The notes under the pieces are model-generated. The model worked only from the letters and a program-made list of their open reading frames with translations. It did no database searches and had not been told where the DNA came from. From Nitrospirales bacterium (GTDB lineage Bacteria; Nitrospirota; Nitrospiria; Nitrospirales; UBA8639), in NCBI GenBank assembly GCA_963422365.1, contig OY729426.1, positions 1,152,001 through 1,216,000 on the forward strand: a DNA stretch of 64,000 bases, written 5' to 3'. This document shows positions 20,159 to 32,413 of this stretch, piece by piece; the first letter of the stretch is position 1, and every line of letters starts with the position of its first letter. A program made the translations under genes and the position numbers.

Positions 20159-20369
20159 GTCGAAGGTTCTCCCGTACTTTTTGGTCTTTTGACTGAAAGA
20201 GCCTTTCTCACTGTCTCTTGTTGAATTGCCAAATTGGTAACGGCTTATTTGAAGCCGTATGCACCAACCAAGGTCGTCAGCCGTGCCTTTCGTTCCGGCG
20301 GGAACGTTCCGGTGCGTGGGTACGAAGTCGGTTGAGTGCTGAAGCTGTCAATGATGGCATAATGCATTC

Positions 20370-20606
20370 ATGGCCATACAGATCACAATCAGAGGTGTGT
20401 CCGAAGAAGTCCGTGATGAACTCGCGGTGCGCGTGGCACTTCAACGCCAGTCCATGCAGGAATTCCTCCGCTGCGAATTGGAGCGTATCGCGTCATGGCC
20501 CTCCGTTGGCGCGTGGCTGCAAGAAGTTCGCAACCGCAAGGCAGAAACAGAAACGCGGGTCCCACCGTCCCGTATCCTGCGTGCCCGTGCCCCGGATCGG
20601 CCGTGA
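20370..20606 (+). CDS. FitA/VapB-like ribbon-helix-helix antitoxin
   Basis: QITIRGVSEEVRDELAVRVALQRQSMQEFLR RHH pattern; GTGA overlap with the PIN gene. Confidence 0.85.
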   Translation: MAIQITIRGVSEEVRDELAVRVALQRQSMQEFLRCELERIASWPSVGAWLQEVRNRKAETETRVPPSRILRARAPDRP

Positions 20607-21007
20607 CGACCGTCGTCGACGGATCCGTGCTGGTTGCGGCCTTGGTCGACTCAGGGCGTGAAGGGAGGTGGGCGGAATCCGTGCTTGCCGAAGGCTTGCT
20701 GGCCAGTCCGGAAGAGGCCTTGGCTGCGGCCAGCAACATCCTGCGTCGGGTGGAACGGATTGTCCGGATCTCACGCATAGAGTCCGAAAGCGCGCACGTT
20801 GACCTGCTGCGACTCGATGTGGAGTGGTTCCCCTTCGCGCGGCCCTTCGCCGAGCGGGTATGGGCATTGCGCGGCAACCTGACCAGCTACGATGCCTGGT
20901 ACGTGGCGCTGGCCGAGGCACTTGATTGCCCGCCGGTGACACTTGACCGGAAGCTCAGCCGTGCCATCGGCCCCATGTGCAAGGTCATCACTCTGCCCCG
21001 TTCGTAG
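20603..21007 (+). CDS. vapC: VapC PIN-domain ribonuclease toxin
   Basis: VVDGSVLV, NLTSYDAWYVALAEAL, VTLDRKL. Confidence 0.9.
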   Translation: MTTVVDGSVLVAALVDSGREGRWAESVLAEGLLASPEEALAAASNILRRVERIVRISRIESESAHVDLLRLDVEWFPFARPFAERVWALRGNLTSYDAWYVALAEALDCPPVTLDRKLSRAIGPMCKVITLPRS

Positions 21008-21074
21008 ACAAGAAAGAAGAACGAATAATTCCCAAAGAATGCAAGCGGCTGGCTGAGGATGACTTCTCGGTGGC

Positions 21075-21250
21075 CGAAGTCTTGAAGCACAAGGAAAGTG
21101 GAAAGGGTTCCATTCCATCAGGATGAATGACCAGTGGCGATTGGTGTTTCGATGGAGTGGGGGTCATGCCTATGGCGTGCAAATCATCGACTATCACGAA
21201 AGGAGGCAAAACGCAGTGAATAAACAACCGAAGAATCCTTTTCATCCCTA
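21075..21250 (+). pseudogene. HigBA remnant (HigB C-terminus plus first residues of HigA)
   Basis: GKWKGFHSIRMNDQWRLVFRWSGGHAYGVQIIDYH; then AGGAGG-GTG NKQPKNPFHP, which breaks off. Confidence 0.75.
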
Positions 21251-21404
21251 CCTGCTCGACAGCTTGGGTCACTGGAACGCGACGAAACTCCTACGTGAAT
21301 GTGTTTCGCGGTGTTACCCTCTGCCATGGGTTAAACGGGAACCATGGCAGGCTGCCGATCCGGATTTCGCCTCCAAGCCCGATGGAATGGAACCACCGGT
21401 GAGG

Positions 21405-21538
21405 TGTAATCGTGCGGCGACCGTGACTTCCATGTCCGCGCCGCCGTGGTCCTAGCCAAGTTCGTGAATGAACAAGGGTTGGAAATCGAAGTTCTCCAGA
21501 TAGTTTCTGATCTTATCTCTGCCGAGGATCGTCGGCAT
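21405..21538 (-). pseudogene. N-terminal remnant of a paralogue of the 29 kb methyltransferase gene
   Basis: MPTILGRDKIRNYLENFDFQPLFIHELG*DHGGADMEVTVA versus MPSNLDRNRVRNHLENFDLRLLFIEELGWDHGGTDTEATVA; TGG>TAG at 21452-21454. Confidence 0.85.
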
Positions 21539-21656
21539 TCGGAATGTCCTGGGTTGGTTGTCAGTTTTTTTTCGTTCTCAATCCACAATCTTCAGTCCAC
21601 AATCCTTTGCCTACAGATGCCACACATCGGACAAGGCGGCCATCTTACGGCAAAAA

Positions 21657-21789
21657 CAAATAGTATACTATATTTGCAATAATACACTATTTTTGCGAAT
21701 TATCATATTTATTATATAGAGATCAGTTGACTCCTTCTGGAGGTAAAATTAAAATTATATTTTAAATAATTCTCGTAAATAGTGAAATT
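21657..21789 (+). promoter_or_regulatory. AT-rich abiE promoter region with inverted repeats (candidate operator)
   Basis: 12-bp palindrome atagtatactat (21660-21671); 19-bp inverted repeat 21685-21703 / 21766-21784 (16/19 match). Confidence 0.6.
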
Positions 21790-22617
21790 ATGAATATAGA
21801 ATATACTTATTCGGCAGATAGCTCACTACCAATCGGCCGGCGCAAACTTGCAGCCGTGATACGGGCCGCCAACGACGTCATCGAAATTGATGATGTCGTA
21901 GCAACGCTTACTACCGGCAGAATTGAAGCCTCCAAGCTGCTGTCCCGATGGGCCGGTCAGGGCTGGTTGCGGCGTGTTGGTGGAGGTGCCTATGTCCCTG
22001 TGCCTCTGGATTCGCTTGACAGCCAACATGTGCTTGAAGACCCCTGGGTGCTTGTTCCTGCCCTTTATACCCCGGCCTATATTGGAGGCTGGACGGCAGG
22101 GGAATACTGGGATCTTACGGAGCAGTTATTCCGCGACGTCATCATCATGACGGCACAGCCGGTTCGCGAAAAGAGTCAGGTCCGTCACGGGGCACGGTTT
22201 AGGCTATACCACATTCAGGAACGTAAAATCTTCGGCATGAGGCCCGTCTGGCGCGGTTGTTCCAAAGTGCTGCTGTCGGATGTTCACCGGACCGTGATCG
22301 ACATGTTGGACAATCCTGCCCTGGGCGGCGGGATTCAACACGTATCCGATTGCCTGGGTGCTTATCTGAAACGCTCCGATCGTAGCGATGATACGCTCAT
22401 TGCCTATGCCGAGAGGCTTGGTAACGGAGCAGTATTCAAGCGCCTCGGCTTTTTGGCCGACCAACGTTCTGACACTTCCCATTTGACTGATGTTTGCCTG
22501 GCACATCTGACGGCAGGCAACGCCAAGCTCGATACCACCCTCAGATGCTCCCGCCTGATTTCCAAATGGCGCCTCTGGATCCCGCCAACTTGGATGGGAG
22601 AAATGCCGCATGATTGA
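21790..22617 (+). CDS. AbiEi-family (type IV TA) antitoxin/regulator
   Basis: N-terminal wHTH (LLSRWAGQGWLRRVGGGAY), YIGGWTAGEYWDLTEQ, SDVHRTVIDMLDNP, KRLGFL; overlaps the toxin start. Confidence 0.85.
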   Translation: MNIEYTYSADSSLPIGRRKLAAVIRAANDVIEIDDVVATLTTGRIEASKLLSRWAGQGWLRRVGGGAYVPVPLDSLDSQHVLEDPWVLVPALYTPAYIGGWTAGEYWDLTEQLFRDVIIMTAQPVREKSQVRHGARFRLYHIQERKIFGMRPVWRGCSKVLLSDVHRTVIDMLDNPALGGGIQHVSDCLGAYLKRSDRSDDTLIAYAERLGNGAVFKRLGFLADQRSDTSHLTDVCLAHLTAGNAKLDTTLRCSRLISKWRLWIPPTWMGEMPHD

Positions 22618-23995
22618 CCAGCGCGAGATTATCGACGCTGCGACTGAGCTTGGTCTCAATCCCCATGTGATTGAGAAGGACTACGTCCTGGGTTGGGTAC
22701 TCTGGGGTATCTACGGTCACGACAAGTTGGCCGGAAGCTGGATATTCAAAGGCGGCACCTGCCTGAAGAAGTGCTTTTTTGAAACCTATCAATTTTCGGA
22801 AGACCTGGATTTTACGCTCACCGATTCTTCACATGTAGATGCCATGTTTCTCAAAACGGTATTCGCCGAAATCGGCGAACGCATATACGAAGAGACTGGT
22901 ATCGAGGTGCCGACAGACTTTCAGCAATTTGAAATCTACGCAAATCCGCGTGGCTTGGAATCCTGCCAGGGGCGGATCGGCTATCAGGGGCCAATATCGC
23001 CGCCGCGTGGCAAGAACATGCCACGGATCAAAGTTGACCTGACCGCGGATGAATGCGTCGTCTTGCCTCCGGTTCGGGCTCTTGTCTTTCATCCATACGG
23101 CGATATCCCAGCCAGCGGGATCGTCGTACAGTCCTATGCCTATGAGGAGGCTTTCGCCGAAAAAATCCGTGCGCTTGCTGAGCGAGCGCGGCCCCGTGAC
23201 CTTTACGATGTCATTAACCTGTTCCGGAACGCTGAAGCACGGCCAGCTGCCTCTGTGCTTCTCGACGTGCTTCGTCAGAAATGTGATTTCAAGGGCATCG
23301 GTCTCCCTGTTCTCAACGCACTTGAGTTGCACAAGTCCGATTTAGAGGGTGCTTGGGGCACGATGCTCGCCCATCAACTCCCCGCTCTGCCGCCTTTCGA
23401 GTGGTTCTGGCATAAGTTGTTGGAATTCTTTGCGTGGCTTGAGGGCGGGGCGGCACCGGCCATCCCTGCTGCCTACAAGAGAGCTATCGGCGAAGAGCTT
23501 ATCAGAGAACGTACTTTACGTCTGCCGGTCTCAAGGGCCGTCCGATCCTATCTGGAGATCACCCGATTCGCTGCTTCCAACCGGCTTTGCGTTGAACTCG
23601 ACTACCGGAGTTCGACCAGGCTGATCGAACCGTATTCGCTACGCCGCACCAAAGAAGGTAACATTATTCTTCATGCTCACAACGTGGATAGGAATGAACA
23701 CAGGAGCTATCGCGTAGACCGCATTCAGGGGGCTCGAGTGACCGACAAGATTTTTACACCACGTTTTGAGATCGAACTGACACCAACTGGCCCGGTTGTC
23801 ATAGCGCCGACAGCCGCATGTGAAACCTCAGGCTCCTTGCGAAGCGCCAGCGGTCCAACCTACGTTTATGAGTGTTCGTTTTGCGGAAAACATTTCAACC
23901 GCGGACAGCAAACAACGTTCCTCAATCCACACAAGGACACGAGTGGTTATCCTTGTCCTGGCAGATATGCCCAGTGGATAGATGCACGGTATTAG
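22610..23995 (+). CDS. AbiEii/DUF1814 nucleotidyltransferase toxin fused to a WYL domain and C-terminal Zn-finger
   Basis: IEKDYVL, FKGGTCLKK, FSEDLDF, EKIRAL...RPRDLYD; C-terminal VELDY...RLIEPYSL...RSYRVDRI (WYL); CSFC...H...C. Confidence 0.85.
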   Translation: MIDQREIIDAATELGLNPHVIEKDYVLGWVLWGIYGHDKLAGSWIFKGGTCLKKCFFETYQFSEDLDFTLTDSSHVDAMFLKTVFAEIGERIYEETGIEVPTDFQQFEIYANPRGLESCQGRIGYQGPISPPRGKNMPRIKVDLTADECVVLPPVRALVFHPYGDIPASGIVVQSYAYEEAFAEKIRALAERARPRDLYDVINLFRNAEARPAASVLLDVLRQKCDFKGIGLPVLNALELHKSDLEGAWGTMLAHQLPALPPFEWFWHKLLEFFAWLEGGAAPAIPAAYKRAIGEELIRERTLRLPVSRAVRSYLEITRFAASNRLCVELDYRSSTRLIEPYSLRRTKEGNIILHAHNVDRNEHRSYRVDRIQGARVTDKIFTPRFEIELTPTGPVVIAPTAACETSGSLRSASGPTYVYECSFCGKHFNRGQQTTFLNPHKDTSGYPCPGRYAQWIDARY

Positions 23996-24199
23996 AGGTA
24001 GTGGGCGATTACTTTGATGTACCGGAAAAACTAAAAATCCTGATGAGAACGGACGTGTCAATCCCGAAGTGTCGGGTCATAGGGCTGATCAAAGAAGCAA
24101 GGTCAAGCTTAGAGCAACCGGACCCTTCTGGCAGGGTGTTGTGAAGTAAGGATTGTCGTAATATGCCTACATTCGCGAGAAGAAACGGAGGCCCAGCGT

Positions 24200-24456
24200 A
24201 TGGGTATCACAGTCGTTACCAGCAGAGCGTTTAATCAAGATGTGAGTACAGCCAAGAGGGACGCTTTGAAGGGGCCGGTTTTATCACTGATCACGGCGGT
24301 ACGGCGTATGTCTTATTGACCATTGAGGACCATCAAAAGATCACGGAGAAGGAAGCAAGCATCGTTGAATTGTTGGCCATGCCGGAAGCCACCGATGTTG
24401 ATTTTGAGCCACTCCGCTTGAACCGCGAAATGCATAGAACGGCAGACCTGTCCTGA
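24200..24456 (+). pseudogene. Phd/YefM-family antitoxin, frameshifted; followed by a 6-codon VapC stub
   Basis: MGITVVTSRAFNQDVSTAKRDALKGPV / ITDHGGTAYVLLTIED...DFEP; one T missing near 24280; TGATG then MYLLDV. Confidence 0.8.
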
Positions 24457-24707
24457 TGTATCTGCTTGATGTCTTTTCTATGACTGACAGCAACAATTAT
24501 CACGTCTTCTCCGGTGACTTCATAGACAATGCGATAGTCGCCAACACGGATACGATACAGCCGTTCGTATCCCTTCAACTTTTCAACTCCTTGCGAAGAA
24601 GGCAACGCAGCCAGTTCGAGTATCGAGAGTGCGGCATGCCTCTGAATATCTTTCGGCAGCGAACGCAAGTCTTTCAAAACACTGCGTTTAATCGTCAGCT
24701 TCGACAT
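24333..24707 (-). CDS. RelE/ParE family toxin with an aberrant C-terminal extension
   Basis: KLKGYERLYRIRVGDYRIVYEV...VSHRKDI; native stop lost at about 24468. Confidence 0.8.
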   Translation of the reverse strand: MSKLTIKRSVLKDLRSLPKDIQRHAALSILELAALPSSQGVEKLKGYERLYRIRVGDYRIVYEVTGEDVIIVAVSHRKDIKQIHQDRSAVLCISRFKRSGSKSTSVASGMANNSTMLASFSVIF

Positions 24708-24884
24708 AGGCTAGAAGGTCCCTCAAGGAGGAAATGGGAATGCTCGGCTCGTTTTTTCGCTCTTCGATGATCCGGAGGTCTTCCAACTCTTCCAAACGCT
24801 CGACCAAGGCCAGGAAGTCTTGAAGCGGCAAAACACGGCGGTCCTTTGCCCGTTCGCATCAACAAGAAATTGTGTGGTCATCAT
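24688..24884 (-). pseudogene. RelE-partner antitoxin, frameshifted
   Basis: MMTTQFLVDANGQRTAV / LPLQDFLALVERLEELEDLRIIEERKNEPSIP; 1-nt deletion near 24832; overlaps the relE start. Confidence 0.75.
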
Positions 24885-25015
24885 AGTTCCTTACGATTTT
24901 TGCTTATACACCGATCACTGGCTGTCAGCCTCACCCCGTAGCCTACAGAGCCCCACTGTGCGTCAACCGGAGACAGATGAGATGAGGCTATCGACTTGCA
25001 CTCCGCTCATTCAAC

Positions 25016-25711
25016 CTACGACCTGTTAGCTGCAAAGACTGGACGGTCTATTCTGTCCACAATCAACGGCGACGGGTCTTGAGCCGAAACCGGCACAACG
25101 CCAAGCTCTACGAGGTGCGCGTTGTCCGGAGAGTCCAGGGTAAACACTGGTTTTTCGTGGGTGAGGGTGGCCTTGCAGAGTTGTTCGATCTTGCCGCCTT
25201 TTTCGGCGTGGGTGATGAGGAGGCGGTCGGCGAGAGAGGCGACGTAGGCGTTGCGTCTGGCTGCCATGGCTGTGGTTGGGCGATGGATGTTGTCGTCGAA
25301 AAAGGAGAGGAGCAGCAGGCGGCCTTCGGCTAAGGGCTTCTTCCAGCCTTTTGGAATCCGCATGTGGCCGAGTCCCAGTGCCGGGCAGACCACGATGGAT
25401 GCCCTGCCACGCAACAGGAGATTCAGGCACTCCTTTTCCATCGGTGATTGGAAACCGCCGATGATCGTCATATCCACGTCTCGGAGCGCCCGTGCGAGAT
25501 CATAGGTCTTGAGAATCGTGTCGCCGGGAGAGCGAACGGAACAGAAAACGGCAATCGGCGCAGTATCGAGGATGCCGAGGTCGCCTTTCGTCGTAACTGT
25601 CAACGGACAGCCGTCATCAGAGCAGCGTCGCAACGCTGATGGATAGTCAATTGCGTCCGGCGATCGCCGACAAAGGTCAGCAGTCACAACTGTGCCGTGG
25701 TTACGTAGCAT
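25016..25711 (-). CDS. DprA/Smf-like SLOG-fold protein
   Basis: YPSAL...GDLGIL...IAVFCS, IIGGFQSPMEKE, GRLLLLS, ARRNAYVASLAD; no C-terminal wHTH evident. Confidence 0.8.
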   Translation of the reverse strand: MLRNHGTVVTADLCRRSPDAIDYPSALRRCSDDGCPLTVTTKGDLGILDTAPIAVFCSVRSPGDTILKTYDLARALRDVDMTIIGGFQSPMEKECLNLLLRGRASIVVCPALGLGHMRIPKGWKKPLAEGRLLLLSFFDDNIHRPTTAMAARRNAYVASLADRLLITHAEKGGKIEQLCKATLTHEKPVFTLDSPDNAHLVELGVVPVSAQDPSPLIVDRIDRPVFAANRS

Positions 25712-25718
25712 TCCGCTG

Positions 25719-28700
25719 TCATGTTTTACTCAATCCTACGCGGTACTTGATGTCGTAGTTGACGATGAAATCCAGTTCCTCGTCGGTGAAGCCGTAGTGT
25801 TCGTCCAACACGCGGTCGATCTCGTCGATGATTCCTTTAGATTTCCGAGGATAAAATTCATCGTACTTGACCTTGCCTGTTGTCTTGTAACTTGCGATCT
25901 TTTGTTTACATCGCAGTTTGTAATCGTTCATTAGTCGATTTGCTAGGACCTCAAGGTTTCTACAAATCTCGGTTTTCATCTCACCAATGCTAATTGGAAA
26001 AGAGAAAATCTCGTGACGACCGCAGTGGTATCCTTCGAACAGCGAATACCACCACCAGAAGAAAAGATTCGAATTGAGCACGGCTAACAAAGAACCATTC
26101 GCTTCCGATGGTTCCAACTGATAGGCCTTATAGTCCTCAGATTTTTTCTGGCCGTCAACTTCACTCCAAAAGTAAGGTATGAAATTAAACGCTTTAATGT
26201 AGTTATATGGAATACGATGAACGTAGAATGAGGGAGAAGTCGGACGTTGTTTATATGATGCCGGACTAAATCGACTAAGTTTTCGCAGGATCTGCTCGGC
26301 AATCCTGTCTCCGAGTTTGGGAACCAGACAAAGATCTTGGTCGAGATATGACTTGTGATAACGAAGGTTCGAAAATAAATCGCTTCTTTCTTCCGGTTTC
26401 CAACGATTATAGAACGTAGCGCAAAATCTCGATTTATTGATACGTTCGGATAGTATCAGTAGACAGAGTCTCTGTTTTGCGCCCTCGAACAGCTTGCTGG
26501 GATAGACGTCGAACGTGCTTAGATAAGTATGTCGTTTCTCATCAACAAGAAGCCGTTGCAGGGTGTTCATTCTGGCTGTTGTTTGCAAGCTGAGGGGAAT
26601 GATAAAACTAAATCTAGCCCGTGGGTGTAACAACGTAAGTGCGCGCTCGGTACAAAAAGCGTAGATATTTCCACACTGCTCGGTTTTTAGGCCATTCAAT
26701 TGATAGATTGATTTGATCTGAGAATACTCCACATACGGCGGGTTGCCGATTGCCACGTCGAAGCCGCCCTTGTGCATAATGCCCTTGTGCATAATGCCGT
26801 AGAACTCGACGAACCAGTGGAAGGGCTGGTGGCTGCCCCGCCATTTTTGGTATGCCTTTCCGTCATCGGTTTTGACGCCGTAATCACCGGCTAAATACTC
26901 ATCTAATTCGTCGCGCAGGTCATTGAGTCGTTCCCGCAATTCCACCTTGGTGCTGGCAAACTTGCTGGCATCCATGCCGTGCTCGGTCTGCATTTCGCGA
27001 AATGTACGAAAAGCGCGGTCGGCGATTTCGGCGCGTTCCTCTATCTGAGGAAGCGACAATTGCTTTATCAGGTCGGCGCGCAGCACCCTTTTTACTTCGT
27101 CCAGCGACGTGAAACCGACAAGTGTGTTGCCGGCGCGGATGTTGAAGTCGATGTCCGGCAACGGCTCGATCTGGTCGTAGGATTCGAGCTGGGCCACCAG
27201 TTTCAAGAAGAGTCGCAGCTTACAGATTTCGACGGCCTCTTCCATGATGTCCACGCCGTAAAGGTTGTCGACGACGATGGACTTGAGAATGAAGTAGCGC
27301 TCGCTCGCGTGCTTGTCCACGTTTGCCAGCGCCTTACGGAAGTCGCTCAGATACTCCGGGCGGCGGCGCTGCGAACGCTCCAGGTCGTCGAGGAAGCCGC
27401 GCATGGCTTCCAGACAGGCCGTGTACAGCGGCCTCCAGAATATTGAGCGCCGCGAACAGGAACGCCCCTGAGCCGCACGTTGGGTCAAGGACGGAAACCG
27501 CGTTGAGCGCCTTCCAGAAGGCACGCACCGGCTCCGGCCCTTCGCTGCCGGCGATGACATCCAGAGCGAATTTCTCAATGTCCAGATTGTAGGTGATGAG
27601 GTCGTTGATTGACGTCACCTCGCCGGCGGTAAGTTTGGCGCGGACTTGCTCGTAACGCCGGCGGCGGGCGACGTGCTCGCGCCATGTCTCGGTCGGCAGG
27701 GCAAAATCGCGCGGAGCGGGTTTGTTCCAGCTGCTGCGTTTGGATACGTCGTTCAGACCGGCGGCTATCTCAGCCGGCAGTTCGCATTTTTCCGCCAACC
27801 GTTCTTTTTTGTGGATGTCATACGTGATGCCGTGGCGGACCGCCTCGTAAAAATAGCGGTCAGGGTTGTCCGAGAGCAGCCGCCACACCCCGCCGTCGGG
27901 CTTGAAGGCAATGGCATACGCCTGTTTCGCCCGGTCGAACAGGAACGGGATGACCGTGTTGCGGGCGATGTAGCCGGTGATATCCTCCTTGGTGTAGTAG
28001 GCGCCTATCTGCTTCTGGTTGATGTACTTCTCGAAGATGCAGCCCAGAATGTCGGGGTTGATCTCGTTGTCGCCGCGCAGCGGCCGGTCGTCGAGATGCC
28101 ATTGGTAGGCGTCGAAAAAATCGAAAATCTTCGCAAACGCTTCATCGGGAATCTCGATCTGCGGGTTGTTCCGCTCCAGGTCGTGCTTCTCGAACAAGCC
28201 GCCGTTGAGGTACGGCACCTTGCCCAGCAGTTTCGCCAAGTCGGGATCGCGTTTGGTCTCGGGCAGTCCCAGCCCCTCGTGGAACAGCCGCAAGAGGAAC
28301 AGCCGGTAGAAACTGAGGAAGTTGCCGTCTCCCCGCTGCTGTCGCACGCTTTTCAGACGGTTGTGCAGGTAGTCCGTGTTGTTGTCCAGGAAGCCGCGCT
28401 TCTGGATGAAGTAGATGAACATCATCCGGTTCAGCATCAGCGAGGCGTACCATTCCCGGTCGGCCACGTTCTCGATACCCTCGATGAATCCCAGAAAGGC
28501 GTGATGCTCCTTCTTGAAACGGTCGTAGAACCGCTTGGTGACTCTCTCGATATCAAAGGCCTCGTGTACCCGGCCAGACACGTCAACAATGGTGAGATCG
28601 TCTTCCTCGTCCAGCGTGAAGACAAGCTGCTCCAGCTTCTGGATCAGCGCTTCGCCTGATTGTTGCAGGTGGTAGATGTGCTGACGCGGCCTGTCGGGCT

Positions 28701-29034
28701 GGCCGGGCTCGCGTTTCACCCATTGCCAATAGTGGGTACTCCGGTCGGGCGGGGCGTACACGATGATGTGTTCGCGGACGGACTTGGCGACGGCTTTCTC
28801 GATCTTCTGGCGGACGGGATGAGCGGGAAACGCTTTGTCCGTCTCTGCAACGCATTGATAGGCAACCATGCCGCGCTTGTGGGCGATGGCTTCGAGAACG
28901 AACGTCGTGCCTGCGACTGTAGCCTCCGTGTCCGTGCCCCCGTGGTCCCAGCCAAGTTCCTCGATGAACAGCAAGCGGAGGTCGAAGTTCTCCAGATGGT
29001 TTCGGACTCTATTTCTGTCAAGATTACTTGGCAT
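25719..29034 (-). pseudogene. Large N6-adenine DNA methyltransferase/specificity protein (Eco57I-like), split by a +1 frameshift at about 27432
   Basis: VPYLNGGLF, GAYYT, LDPTCGSGAFL in ORF 27334-29055; LYGVDI, GNTL, FDVAIGNPPY in ORF 25719-27578; junction ctg gag G ccg ctg tac. Confidence 0.85.
26766..26798. repeat. 15-bp perfect tandem duplication (GIMHK-GIMHK)
   Basis: gcccttgtgcataat x2 plus gcc. Confidence 0.95.
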
Positions 29035-29047
29035 TTCATCTGCCGTC

Positions 29048-32000
29048 CTATCCAATCAAACCCATTGAGCAGATGATACTTGGTTCCTGACGTTCGTCTT
29101 CTTCATGTACGATGCAAAGCCGGTCTTCATCTCTAAGCGCGACGACCAACCCGGCAAGGGCCTGGTCGGAGATGCCGCTACGCAATTGCCGGTTCAGCGT
29201 ATCCACCGCGGCCTGACTCAACGGATAGCGATAGATGTCGTCAATTGCGCGGCGTAGCGGCGTACTGTCGAACAGTGTGCCCTTGACGCTTTCGGCATAG
29301 CTCTTCAGCTGCTCGTAGGTACGAAACCGCGCCCCAGAGGGGCGACCGAGCTGTCCTCCGACCTGTTTTTCCTCGCCGGCAATGCGCTCCGCAGCTCTGC
29401 TTACCAAATCGTGATGGGTCTCATGACGCGGCAAGGCCGGCGTGTCGGGCGGGCATTCCGCAGCCCGCAAAATCTCGAACTGGCTCTTGGTCACACTTTT
29501 GCCGTCGCGGTCAATCCAGGCTAGCGCATCGTATCCCTGGGCGGTCCGCATGTACACCAGCGCTCCTGCCGGTCGCTCCGGTCGTTCATGGTAGGCTTTT
29601 GAGGAATAGACCACAGACGGCAAGTCCTCGATCTTCTTCCTGAGCGTCGGATTATCCGCAGTTGCGTTCCGCCAAATCTGATACGCGTATGAGGACAGGT
29701 CGACGTCCGTCTCGTCGTCGTTGTCGAGAATCCCTGCCTTTTCGTTATAGAGGTCAAGCACGGTCTGTTTGGCCTCGTCCTCGAAGAACGCCTCGTCGGT
29801 CCCGACCACTTCTGCGTTCTCGTGGAGGCGTGTCCGCACGCAGGCGCGAAGCCGGATCAGACGTTCAACCCCCTCGGCTGGAAGAAAGGAATAGCACAGG
29901 ATGTCGTGCGCCTGTTGGCCGATGCGGTCAATACGGCCAGCCCGTTGAATCAGGCGCATGATGGCCCATGGCAGGTCGTAGTTCACCACAACGGCACAGT
30001 CCTGCAAATTCTGTCCTTCGCTGAGCACGTCTGTGGCGATCAGCGCGCGCAGTTCCTCGTCCGTGGGGATGCGCCCCTCTCTGCCGTTGCTCTTTGGGCT
30101 GAAGCGCCAAGCTATTGCCGTGGGATCGGGAGAGTCCCCCGTGACGGCGGCCATGTTTGTCACGCCGCGTGCGGCCAATTGCTCGTACAGGTAACGCGCC
30201 GTATCCGCGAACTGAGTAAAAACGAGCGCTTTTTGGCCGGAATGCTTTTCCGTGAGCAGCCGTTGCAGAGCGTCGAGCTTAGCGTCGGCTCCGGGTTTCC
30301 AGCCGCCGCCGCGAATCAGCAGCCCGCGTAGGGCAGCGGCATCCGCCTGCAGGTCTTTACGCAGTTGCGCAACGAAAAGATGCGCGCCCAGCCAGCGGAA
30401 CCGCCGCTTGTATTTTTCGACGTACAGCTTGTAAACCTCGGCGGCGCGGGTGCGGAAATCCTCCTCCGTGCGCAGCGGTACGGATACGGGCGCGGCCGGC
30501 TGCTCGGCGTTTTCCGCGTCTTCGTCGTCAAACGCGCTGCCGCCGGCGTCTTCCGCGTCCTCATCGAAGGACCCCGCGTCCAGCAGTCCCGCGTCGAGCG
30601 TCCCGATCGGCAGCGGCAGGCCGTGCTCGATGGCGTGGAGAAAGACGAAGTTCCTGAGCGCGTGCCGCTCGACCGACAGCAGGAAGACATGGCCGCTGCT
30701 TTCCAGGCGCTTGAACAAATTGGTGCGGCAGAAGCCCATCAGCCGTTTGCCCGCGTGCGACAAGTCTTTCAGGATCTTCGCCTCGGCCTGCGTGGGCGGT
30801 GCGGGTAGCGACTCTATGACGTAATTGCCAAGACCGTAACGCGGGAGTTCCAACCCGTTTATGGCGTCAACCATGTTGTCCGCGAACAGCCGGGCATACT
30901 GACCGTCGATGTCGAACCGGAGCGTCTTCGGGACCCGCGTCGGGAAATAGGAGCGCGTACCGTCTTCGAACGTGAGATATTTGCGACCGTTGGCCGAGTC
31001 CGTAGCGGCGTAGTTATCTTGAACGAAGCTGCGCGTGCGGCGGACAAGATACAGGCGCATCAATTCTCGCCAGTCGTCGGCGTGCTCGGATTTCTCAAAC
31101 GCGGCCAGGGAACGAACAGGAGCCTGATGTTGCCGGATGAACTCGGTCTCGCCGATCTCGCGCAACAGCCGCTTGGGCCGAATCCCCAGATCTTCGTCCT
31201 CGGGCACGAACAGCAGAAGTTGGCCGGCAAGATCCGCATAGGTCTTGTTGTAGGGCGTCGCCGACAGCAGGATGCATTTGCTGTCATTTTTCTGGATATA
31301 TTCCCGGATGGCCCGATACCGCTTCCCTTCGCGGTTCCTCAGATTATGGCTTTCGTCTATGATGACGAGCCGGTAGCGGCGCATGTCGGATAACTCCCCG
31401 ATGACGCGGCTGATCGACAGCACCCGCGCCCGCAGGCGGTACTGTTCGCGATGGTCCTCCCACATGGGAACGAGATTTTTCGGACAAACGATCAGCGTTT
31501 CCAGACCGTGATCGTCCTCGAACACGCGCGCCAGCGCCGTTGCCATGAGCGTCTTGCCCAGTCCGACCACGTCGCCGATGATGACGCCGCCCCGCCGGTT
31601 CAGATGATGCGCCGCGATCCGGACGGCGGCGGTCTGGAAATCGAGGAGCTTGTTTCCGAAATCCGTCGGGATACGAAATTCGGTCAGGCCGGCCCGTGCT
31701 TCCTGCGACAGGTGGTACGCGATTTTGATGTAGATATGGTGCGGCGAGATCAGTTCTTCTCGCGCCCAGCTCTCATCGATGATGCGGGCCAATTCGTCGG
31801 AAATATCGATGCACCGGTGGTCGCTCCAGCGATCATTGAACCACGCCGCGAGCTTTCGGCAGGCATCATGATCCAGCACGTCGACGTTCAATTCTCCCTG
31901 CAGGGAAAGGCCGGACAGCGTGAGATTGCTGCTGCCCAGGTAGGCAGTGCAGGGATTGATCGGGTCAGGGCGGAATAGCAGGTAGAGCTTGGCGTGCAGC

Positions 32001-32413
32001 GGATGTCTGAGAAAGAGCTTGACGACGACTTTTTGACTCTTGATTTGCCGCGCCAATCTTCGCAGACCTGCCTCGTCTTCATTGGTGGGAGCACCGATGG
32101 TCAATTGATCGCGGAATTCCTGGGCCAGCCTGTTTTTCAAACGCAGCGCCGTCTGGTTGTCTAAGGGCTCTTCATGTGCCGCAAGACTTCTTGCAGTCCT
32201 CAATTCTTCTTGGGGTAGCCGTGGCATGCCGACGAGGAGACGGCAGCCATGACCGTCTCCACCATCCCATTTTTCGATGTGTTCGTCGATTGATCGCCAG
32301 CCGCGCAGGTTGAAGTATCCCACGCAGAAGTCCGCCCGGTCGGAAACCTTCATGGTTTCGGCCAGGGCCGGTCGGAGATGCTGTTCGATGTTATCGAAAA
32401 TGCGGGGCATCAA
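29048..32413 (-). CDS. PLD-family nuclease fused to an SNF2-like SF2 helicase
   Basis: HAKLY...GSSNLT (PLD); GDVVGLGKT, DESH, SATP, FTQFADT, SEGQNLQ, QRAGRIDRIGQ. Confidence 0.9.
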   Translation of the reverse strand: MMPRIFDNIEQHLRPALAETMKVSDRADFCVGYFNLRGWRSIDEHIEKWDGGDGHGCRLLVGMPRLPQEELRTARSLAAHEEPLDNQTALRLKNRLAQEFRDQLTIGAPTNEDEAGLRRLARQIKSQKVVVKLFLRHPLHAKLYLLFRPDPINPCTAYLGSSNLTLSGLSLQGELNVDVLDHDACRKLAAWFNDRWSDHRCIDISDELARIIDESWAREELISPHHIYIKIAYHLSQEARAGLTEFRIPTDFGNKLLDFQTAAVRIAAHHLNRRGGVIIGDVVGLGKTLMATALARVFEDDHGLETLIVCPKNLVPMWEDHREQYRLRARVLSISRVIGELSDMRRYRLVIIDESHNLRNREGKRYRAIREYIQKNDSKCILLSATPYNKTYADLAGQLLLFVPEDEDLGIRPKRLLREIGETEFIRQHQAPVRSLAAFEKSEHADDWRELMRLYLVRRTRSFVQDNYAATDSANGRKYLTFEDGTRSYFPTRVPKTLRFDIDGQYARLFADNMVDAINGLELPRYGLGNYVIESLPAPPTQAEAKILKDLSHAGKRLMGFCRTNLFKRLESSGHVFLLSVERHALRNFVFLHAIEHGLPLPIGTLDAGLLDAGSFDEDAEDAGGSAFDDEDAENAEQPAAPVSVPLRTEEDFRTRAAEVYKLYVEKYKRRFRWLGAHLFVAQLRKDLQADAAALRGLLIRGGGWKPGADAKLDALQRLLTEKHSGQKALVFTQFADTARYLYEQLAARGVTNMAAVTGDSPDPTAIAWRFSPKSNGREGRIPTDEELRALIATDVLSEGQNLQDCAVVVNYDLPWAIMRLIQRAGRIDRIGQQAHDILCYSFLPAEGVERLIRLRACVRTRLHENAEVVGTDEAFFEDEAKQTVLDLYNEKAGILDNDDETDVDLSSYAYQIWRNATADNPTLRKKIEDLPSVVYSSKAYHERPERPAGALVYMRTAQGYDALAWIDRDGKSVTKSQFEILRAAECPPDTPALPRHETHHDLVSRAAERIAGEEKQVGGQLGRPSGARFRTYEQLKSYAESVKGTLFDSTPLRRAIDDIYRYPLSQAAVDTLNRQLRSGISDQALAGLVVALRDEDRLCIVHEEDERQEPSIICSMGLIG

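Follow-up and report, generated by a model that had tools for sequence, protein, structure and literature searches.

INTRODUCTION

The AbiE systems of Streptococcus agalactiae and Lactococcus lactis, in which the antitoxin gene abiEi precedes the gene for the DUF1814 nucleotidyltransferase (NTase) AbiEii, have been reclassified as type VII toxin–antitoxin (TA) systems (bioRxiv 10.64898/2026.01.19.700257). Inverted repeats lying upstream have been reported as binding sites of AbiEi, and residues D85/E86/I87 of one of its loops are reported to be required for antitoxicity. The phosphoacceptors reported for homologous toxins (T65 of AbiEii and S78 of MenT3) lie in the motif R-x-S/T-x-D-x-D, the arginine of which is reported to be essential for toxicity in AbiEii (R63) and to contact nucleoside triphosphate phosphates in simulations of MenT3 (R76). 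Here we analyse an abiE pair from a Nitrospirales bacterium (GenBank assembly GCA_963422365.1, contig OY729426.1, positions 1,152,001–1,216,000 of the forward strand; this stretch of 64,000 nt is referred to as the window, and coordinates are positions within it). The toxin of this pair carries, beyond its NTase domain, a WYL domain and a putative zinc finger. A preliminary description of the sequence proposed that such a toxin might be switched on directly by nucleic acid, sensor and effector being combined in one chain. In the analysis presented here that interpretation is partly supported: the fusion belongs to a widespread, mobile family, and sensor–effector coupling remains the best hypothesis for it, the basic face of the WYL domain being retained and under purifying selection.

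The comparison relies on what has been reported for WYL-domain regulators. In PafBC a double arginine and a phenylalanine are required, as is the Tyr residue in the WYL triplet. DriD and CapW are reported to bind single-stranded DNA (ssDNA) through arginines of the same loop type, in a pocket that is completed by the WCX domain, and in DriD the Tyr residue in the WYL triplet contacts the ssDNA.

RESULTS

The antitoxin and the NTase domain of the toxin

Two + strand open reading frames (ORFs), overlapping by 8 nt, encode proteins of 275 aa (21790–22617) and 461 aa (22610–23995). The first is abiEi, for an antitoxin and predicted autorepressor (PADLOC AbiEi PDLC02271, E 3.5e-121); its product gave no match in Pfam or NCBIfam, and an antitoxin profile searched against PDB sequences returned no match. 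The second starts with an AbiEii/DUF1814 NTase domain (aa 1–282; 22610–23455, + strand), matched by Pfam PF08843 over aa 35–267 above the cut-off (E 3.4e-33), and the pair has the gene order of AbiE, in which a gene of the AbiEi family immediately precedes that for the DUF1814 toxin. The AlphaFold model of the toxin (96-row alignment) has a pLDDT of 85.9 and a pTM of 0.78. Its first 282 residues match MenT3/TglT (Z 20.5, rmsd 3.5, 261 aligned residues) and MenT4 (Z 20.1), and Foldseek agrees on a MenT-type fold for the enzyme domain and a WYL fold for the second domain. The enzyme domain has the GGT, D-x-D, lysine and aspartate motifs of AbiE/DUF1814 proteins (KGGT, S63-x-D65-x-D67, K185 and D200). 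Among 155 relatives of 385 aa or more, S63, D65 and D67 are each present in 154, K185 in 155 and D200 in 154. The ‘normal’ NTase core of the preliminary description therefore stands as regards the fold, but not as regards the active site, where the window copy has Gln61 in place of a near-invariant arginine (see below).

By motif, S63 falls at the position of AbiEii T65 and MenT3 S78. In the antitoxin, a loop T110-E111-Q112 (encoded at 22117–22125), each residue of which is present in 78 of 78 AbiEi relatives, is the likely counterpart of the D85/E86/I87 loop, again judging by motif. Both features that mark a type VII (auto-phosphorylation) system such as MenAT1, MenAT3 or S. agalactiae AbiE, a serine or threonine at the phosphoacceptor position of the toxin and a conserved antitoxin loop, can thus be placed by motif, and the invariant Ser63 and TEQ loop point to auto-phosphorylation control of the AbiE/MenAT type.

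The WYL domain, linker and finger

Residues ~304–387 of the toxin (23519–23770, + strand) form a WYL domain without a WCX domain. Pfam WYL (PF13280) matches aa 315–377 (E 1e-7; 32.3 bits against a cut-off of 21.8), and the model of aa ~300–389 is a five-stranded Sm-like fold that matches PafBC, CapW, BrxR and DriD with Z of 9.6–11.1 and rmsd of 1.8–3.0, so that the C-terminal region models as the WYL domain that had been proposed. Eight of its residues (Y332, R337, Y342, R345, R365, Y367, R368 and R371) are kept in 137–154 of the 155 relatives. In a profile alignment with PafB, R365-x-Y367-R368-x-x-R371 falls on R-x-F-R-x-x-R and R337 on R-x-V-E-P, and I352-I353-L354 falls on W-Y-L. The toxin has therefore kept the loop arginines, the loop aromatic residue and the beta1 tyrosine, and has isoleucine or valine for the Tyr residue in the WYL triplet (the mapping onto DriD being by motif spacing).

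Mean column conservation of the WYL domain (0.80) is close to that of the enzyme (0.79). In seven independent finger-bearing pairs, hand-chosen from the tree, the uncorrected ratio of non-synonymous to synonymous change (pN/pS) was 0.165 for the enzyme, 0.182 for AbiEi and 0.128 for the WYL domain. By these measures the basic face of the WYL domain is under purifying selection. Stand-alone small WYL proteins of 76–90 aa are also encoded by phages (A0A6J5RNM4, A0A2H5BPX9 and A0A7S5R543, found in BFVD with the WYL model); speculatively, these could soak up the ligands on which WYL sensors depend.

A disordered linker (aa 396–413; 23795–23848, + strand; pLDDT < 50), shorter than the Arg/Ser-rich linker of most relatives, leads to a C-terminal putative zinc finger (23852–23995, + strand) of the pattern CxxC-x15-H-x7-C, flexibly tethered, optional in the family and found in 129 of the 155 proteins. 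The individual residues C422, C425, H441 and C449 occur in 129–131 of the 155, and from them we infer zinc binding; a zinc-ribbon match over aa 416–433 is sub-threshold only. The last 47 residues are modelled as a small beta-rich module with no fixed position on the WYL domain (pTM of 0.55 for WYL plus finger). This is not a classical C2H2 finger, both in its spacing and ligands and in being modelled as all-beta rather than beta-beta-alpha, and its sequence matches to C2H2 proteins are weak. Atlas matches of the finger, all below 0.9, are to unnamed small viral proteins and serve as a lead only; when WYL and finger were submitted to Foldseek as one model, the matched rows covered the WYL part. 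A search with the finger returned 37 proteins, in which AbiEii and WYL were the only Pfam domains. Pfam, PADLOC and the AlphaFold model thus agree with the domain anatomy that had been read from the letters: AbiEi, followed by AbiEii joined to WYL, linker and a CxxC...H...C element.

Distribution of the family

A search with the C-terminal 182 aa matched 1,543 proteins among 1,969 candidates. For the survey of loci we used the best 80 of 369 whole-protein relatives (from 412 pattern matches in a genome collection), which come from many phyla. The abiEi gene lies directly 5′ of the toxin gene in 78 of these 80, and the remaining two loci begin no more than 114 nt from a contig end. Among the best 120 matches to the NTase domain alone, 116 are at least 392 aa and hence long enough to include a WYL domain; the four short ones either stop just behind the enzyme domain or continue in a shifted frame. 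A toxin that does lack the WYL domain, 38% identical and paired with AbiEi, occurs in Thermococcus.

The family is thinly spread, being carried by two of 25 genomes of the genus (the window genome included) and three of 151 of the class. Four full-length copies were found among 72,556 plasmid records, none among 50,697 records of a phage collection, and no second copy was found in the source genome. The tree of 71 loci (toxin ORF of at least 390 aa, the window counted as one row; nine shorter or broken loci of the 80 omitted) is incongruent with host phyla. Such mixing of host phyla, together with the patchy spread, is as expected for mobile DNA, and on these sequence comparisons we regard the fusion family as widespread and mobile.

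Loss of the finger and erosion of the WYL domain

The finger is missing in 24 of the 71 loci. For at least ten of these losses the sister branch still bears a finger, and in five cases a remnant is retained in another frame; the comparison indicates that the finger is dispensable and has been lost repeatedly. One clade of seven Thermodesulfobacteriota and Dadabacteria genomes has gone further, all seven having lost the finger together with R365, R368 and R371 while keeping all six scored enzyme residues. In three independent pairs from this clade the WYL domain had a pN/pS of 0.461, against 0.157 in the enzyme (Fisher p 0.004 for enzyme versus WYL) and 0.242 in AbiEi, a contrast that represents one evolutionary event. 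The enzyme stays constrained where the WYL face has eroded, which indicates that it can remain useful and dangerous without that face, and the WYL domain is most readily understood as an accessory attached to a functional AbiE rather than as a catalytic part. In this clade (L052–L057 and L061) the pair sits amid housekeeping genes (hisD, a hisC-like aminotransferase gene, lnt and lgt in L052), and it may possibly be a domesticated form.

Operator-like palindromes

Of 78 regions 5′ of abiEi, 55 contain a palindrome AATTC-N11-GAATT with at most one mismatch, compared with a mean of 1.1 and a maximum of 4 in 100 shuffles; these loci also supplied the motif, which somewhat inflates the contrast, and the counts come from related loci that are not independent of one another. 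The spacer of 11 nt is specific, other lengths within 7–15 nt giving 0–8 occurrences, and the palindrome is often doubled, with copies about 77–88 nt apart. Two near-matches on the + strand lie in the window: AATAC-N11-GAATT at 21681–21701, a predicted AbiEi site, and AATTC-N11-GAAAT at 21768–21788, directly before the abiEi start codon. A conserved predicted operator, with two copies in the window, thus corresponds to the inverted repeats of AbiE. Between the two copies is a sigma-70-like promoter, TTGACT-17-TAAAAT (21727–21755, + strand), which scores 10/12 in a consensus scan; the scan found three sites where 1.6 were expected, so that the promoter match is weak alone. Both palindromes, together with another inverted repeat (21658–21692), fall in a sharp AT-rich patch at 21640–21810.

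State of the window copy

Codon 61 of the window toxin is CAA (Gln; 22790–22792, + strand). At this position 152 of the 155 proteins have arginine, one has lysine, one has a gap, and only the window copy has glutamine; in its close relatives the codon is CGN (Arg). The active-site arginine of AbiE is therefore present in the family and missing from the window copy. Contigs from three read runs of two studies (X3, X4 and X5, one of which may be the source sample) are identical to the window over 20300–25769, and a fourth run (X6) gave scattered short pieces only. An assembly error behind Gln61, or behind the methyltransferase frameshift described below, is rejected, no other letters or gaps occurring in the X3–X5 contigs.

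The substitution lowers the case for an active toxin in the window, not that for homology, and given the role reported for this arginine the window copy is likely to be inactive or weakened. Its other lineage-specific changes in the enzyme are two non-synonymous against 23 synonymous, from which it follows that the Gln61 hit is likely to be recent. One further copy exists in the genus (L048/G014), located at the same site behind uvrC; it carries a frameshift and reads GGN in place of GGT. The toxin of L063, another relative, has an internal deletion.

Genomic surroundings

The pair lies in a small TA-rich island after uvrC, between a PIN-domain gene (20495–21007, + strand) and a RelE/ParE-type toxin gene (24333–24707, − strand). 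The island also holds a three-gene set (25016–32413, − strand) of a PLD+SNF2 helicase, a type IIG-like methyltransferase and a short DprA-like gene (PADLOC PsyrA, E 9e-15). A frameshift near 27410–27430, also seen in runs X3–X5, breaks the methyltransferase gene (25722–29055, − strand) into two ORFs; both halves match PADLOC PDLC03628, and L041 has an intact methyltransferase of 1,101 aa. No gene of the set reached a curated NCBIfam cut-off, matches to DISARM DrmD and to DpdE being far below, and the set may therefore be an undescribed restriction-like system.

According to the preliminary description, the toxin would back up this nearby helicase/methyltransferase operon, and here the survey gave a different picture. 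L041 and L063 share the three-gene set, and in both (L041:3715–12778 and L063:4817–12235) the abiE–WYL pair lies exactly between helicase and methyltransferase on the opposite strand. In the window a 5′ remnant of a type IIG-like methyltransferase gene lies directly upstream of abiEi (21419–21569, − strand); it is 77–78% identical in nucleotides to L041:6901–7050 and L063:6945–7098 and matches aa 1–40 of the L041 methyltransferase at 65%. Fragments of the L041/L063 layout are thus retained in the window and also in L001. Two ORFs per side were examined at 47 of the 80 loci, these being long and thinned by eye for redundancy, which gave 188 ORFs searched with Pfam, 53 of them also with PADLOC. 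Helicase and methyltransferase flank the pair at two of the 47. A family-wide tie to the operon is rejected on this count, with remnants in L001 besides, and the association is a shared history of the nearest relatives only; in the window the methyltransferase is in any case frameshifted.

A known or candidate defence gene was found within two ORFs at 12 of the 47 loci and mobile-element genes at 14, as plain counts without a control set. The defence genes seen beside members include Hachiman (L051:9628–13017), PARIS-like AriAB (L022:10720–12789), an Mrr-type gene (L058:9716–11101) and a TIR-domain gene (L071:9545–10759). Clustering the ORFs of all 80 loci revealed no conserved third gene, the top clusters beyond the pair being shadow ORFs or genes common to related hosts.

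DISCUSSION

We hypothesize that the family encodes a ligand-gated AbiE tRNA toxin, controlled by auto-phosphorylation and switched on when nucleic acid, likely ssDNA, binds its WYL domain, and we give this model about an even chance of being correct. By analogy with AbiE and MenAT, AbiEi would act as repressor by way of the two palindromes, and it would insert its TEQ loop into the toxin, driving auto-phosphorylation of Ser63 and holding the enzyme off, while free toxin would add nucleotides to tRNA 3′ ends, with the result that tRNA charging is blocked and translation arrested. The evolutionary pattern suggests that the WYL domain is a regulatory add-on unneeded for catalysis. It would bind nucleic acid, likely ssDNA generated by phage, mobile-element or repair activity, and the bound ligand would probably displace AbiEi or prevent phosphorylation, leaving the toxin active; the finger may add affinity for the ligand. 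Beyond the anatomy, each of these steps is one that we infer. The more specific claim, that across this widespread toxin family ssDNA at the WYL domain acts directly to override the auto-phosphorylation induced by the antitoxin and so sets off tRNA nucleotidylation, we put forward tentatively, the balance lying somewhat against it.

A number of observations weigh against a ligand-gated toxin. The tyrosine that contacts ssDNA in DriD is replaced here by isoleucine or valine, and the toxin lacks WCX, the domain that contributes to the ssDNA pocket of DriD and CapW. The clade whose WYL domain has eroded indicates that the usefulness of the toxin is not strictly dependent on that domain, which argues against an obligatory on-switch, and it also fits a change of substrate. 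MenT4 is reported not to be phosphorylated by MenA4, so a serine and an AbiEi-type partner are no guarantee of phosphorylation. Most of the 47 neighbourhoods contain no recognised defence gene, and S. agalactiae AbiE is reported to give no protection against 32 coliphages in Escherichia coli. Finally, nothing on the ligand, substrate, toxicity or anti-phage activity of any member was found in the literature.

One other possible explanation is that the WYL domain and finger hold tRNA or some other RNA and thereby determine the specificity or efficiency of the NTase, without any switching. The fold itself is compatible with this, WYL being Hfq/Sm-like (Hfq matches at Z 5.8–6.2), as is the absence of the ssDNA-stacking tyrosine and of WCX, and the full-chain pTM of 0.78 suggests that in the model the WYL domain packs against the enzyme. 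We nevertheless consider a substrate-gripping role unlikely, if worth serious attention, because purifying selection on the NTase continues in the clade that has lost the WYL arginines, single-domain MenT and AbiEii toxins are reported to modify tRNA unaided, and DriD is reported to bind ssDNA far better than ssRNA.

Alternatively, toxin and AbiEi might form a co-repressor on the palindromes, which ssDNA at the WYL domain would release or remodel, much as in the single-chain regulators CapW and BrxR. Most WYL proteins are reported to be ligand-controlled transcription regulators, AbiEi and AbiEii of S. agalactiae are reported to form a stable heterodimer, and the tandem operator-like sites are conserved. 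Against such transcriptional control, the operator-like sites are still present where the WYL domain has eroded (in six of the seven members of that clade with at most one mismatch), and few contacts of AbiEii with the DNA-binding domain of AbiEi are reported; we judge it improbable.

The presence of an enzyme and an ssDNA-type binding fold on one chain also allows that the enzyme extends ends of ssDNA or of phage nucleic acid rather than host tRNA, in a direct and not an abortive defence, and an identity to MenT3 and MenT4 of just 12–18% leaves room for a different substrate in this clade. This is very unlikely in our estimation, given that the characterised DUF1814 toxins in the literature consulted act on tRNA, that self-toxicity is implied by the antitoxin kept at 78 of the 80 loci, and that the enzyme remains conserved where the WYL domain is no longer intact. 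There is an equally slight chance that the pair is a plain addiction module on mobile DNA with C-terminal domains that do little, as the patchy spread in genus and class, the incongruent tree, the mobile-element neighbours at 14 of 47 loci, the broken copies among nearest relatives and the repeated loss of the finger would allow, since the WYL domain is as conserved as the enzyme across many phyla and has the lower pN/pS.

Because the window copy is likely to be inactive, the ligand-gated model that we favour concerns the family, and the window copy would be a poor choice for experiments; intact copies are available in the harmless cultured bacteria Hyphomonas polymorpha PS728 (L068), Novosphingobium sp. 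MW5 and Rhizobium sullae WSM1592 (WP_051336852.1, with its partner gene upstream). With a candidate sensor fused to the toxin, the question of the trigger becomes directly testable by point mutants. If the more specific claim above is correct, an AbiE system would for the first time have a defined trigger of activation, and a WYL domain would gate the enzyme of a toxin instead of a transcription factor. This would also join two active fields, those of ssDNA-sensing WYL proteins and of tRNA-targeting NTase toxins.

The architecture has been noted before, as the preliminary description had suspected. Supplementary file 7 of Makarova 2014 (PMC4012209) contains a class ‘AbiGII-like-nucleotidyltransferase+WYL+C2H2’, the finger included, and the portion available to us names five ‘DUF1814+WYL(+zf-C2H2)’ proteins of 333–486 aa, two of them with zf-C2H2. 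The toxin described here has the same architecture and falls in the same length range, its fourth finger ligand being a cysteine (CxxC-H-C) and not the second histidine that the C2H2 label implies. The PADLOC AbiEii model PDLC02317 likewise already spans NTase and WYL (aa 1–398, E 5e-195). As far as its accessible part shows, the 2014 class is a listing, without antitoxin partner, operator, mechanism or experiment. In agreement with the preliminary description, no functional study of the fusion was found in a literature search that left most subscription papers and bioRxiv supplements outside its scope. The accessible text of bioRxiv 10.64898/2026.01.19.700257 does not contain the term ‘WYL’, the fusion is not described in the available parts of PMC11375011, PMC11662680, PMC9186387, PMC7725324 and bioRxiv 10.64898/2025.12.11.693706 and 10.1101/2023.08.12.553040, and the supplements of the PafBC study (PMC6789036), so far as accessible, give no match for AbiEii, PF08843, DUF1814 or nucleotidyl. 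It is a widespread AbiE variant, catalogued in silico since 2014 and apparently without experiment. What the present comparison adds is the invariant Ser63 and TEQ loop, the conserved operator palindrome and the pattern of selection and erosion in the WYL domain.

The pair resembles the AbiE systems of S. agalactiae and L. lactis in gene order, in a DUF1814 NTase with the R-x-S/T-x-D-x-D motif, in an AbiEi with a conserved acidic loop and in its upstream inverted repeats. It differs from them in some 180 additional toxin residues (WYL, linker and finger) and in a longer antitoxin (275 against ~196 aa), and the window copy has glutamine where AbiEii has its essential R63. With MenAT3 (TglT–TakA) and MenAT4 of Mycobacterium tuberculosis, the best matches to the enzyme fold, it shares a serine at the phosphoacceptor position and, by analogy, a predicted tRNA 3′-end target, but the MenT toxins are distant in sequence and have no WYL domain. 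With DriD, PafBC, CapW and BrxR it has in common the Sm-like WYL fold and the arginines of the beta4/beta5 loop that those proteins use for ligand binding. In contrast to them, it has neither a helix–turn–helix (HTH) domain nor the WCX dimerization domain, an NTase precedes its WYL domain, and isoleucine or valine takes the place of the triplet tyrosine. The toxin is thus not an HTH–WYL–WCX regulator and shares with such regulators the WYL domain alone, its predicted output being an enzyme and not transcription.

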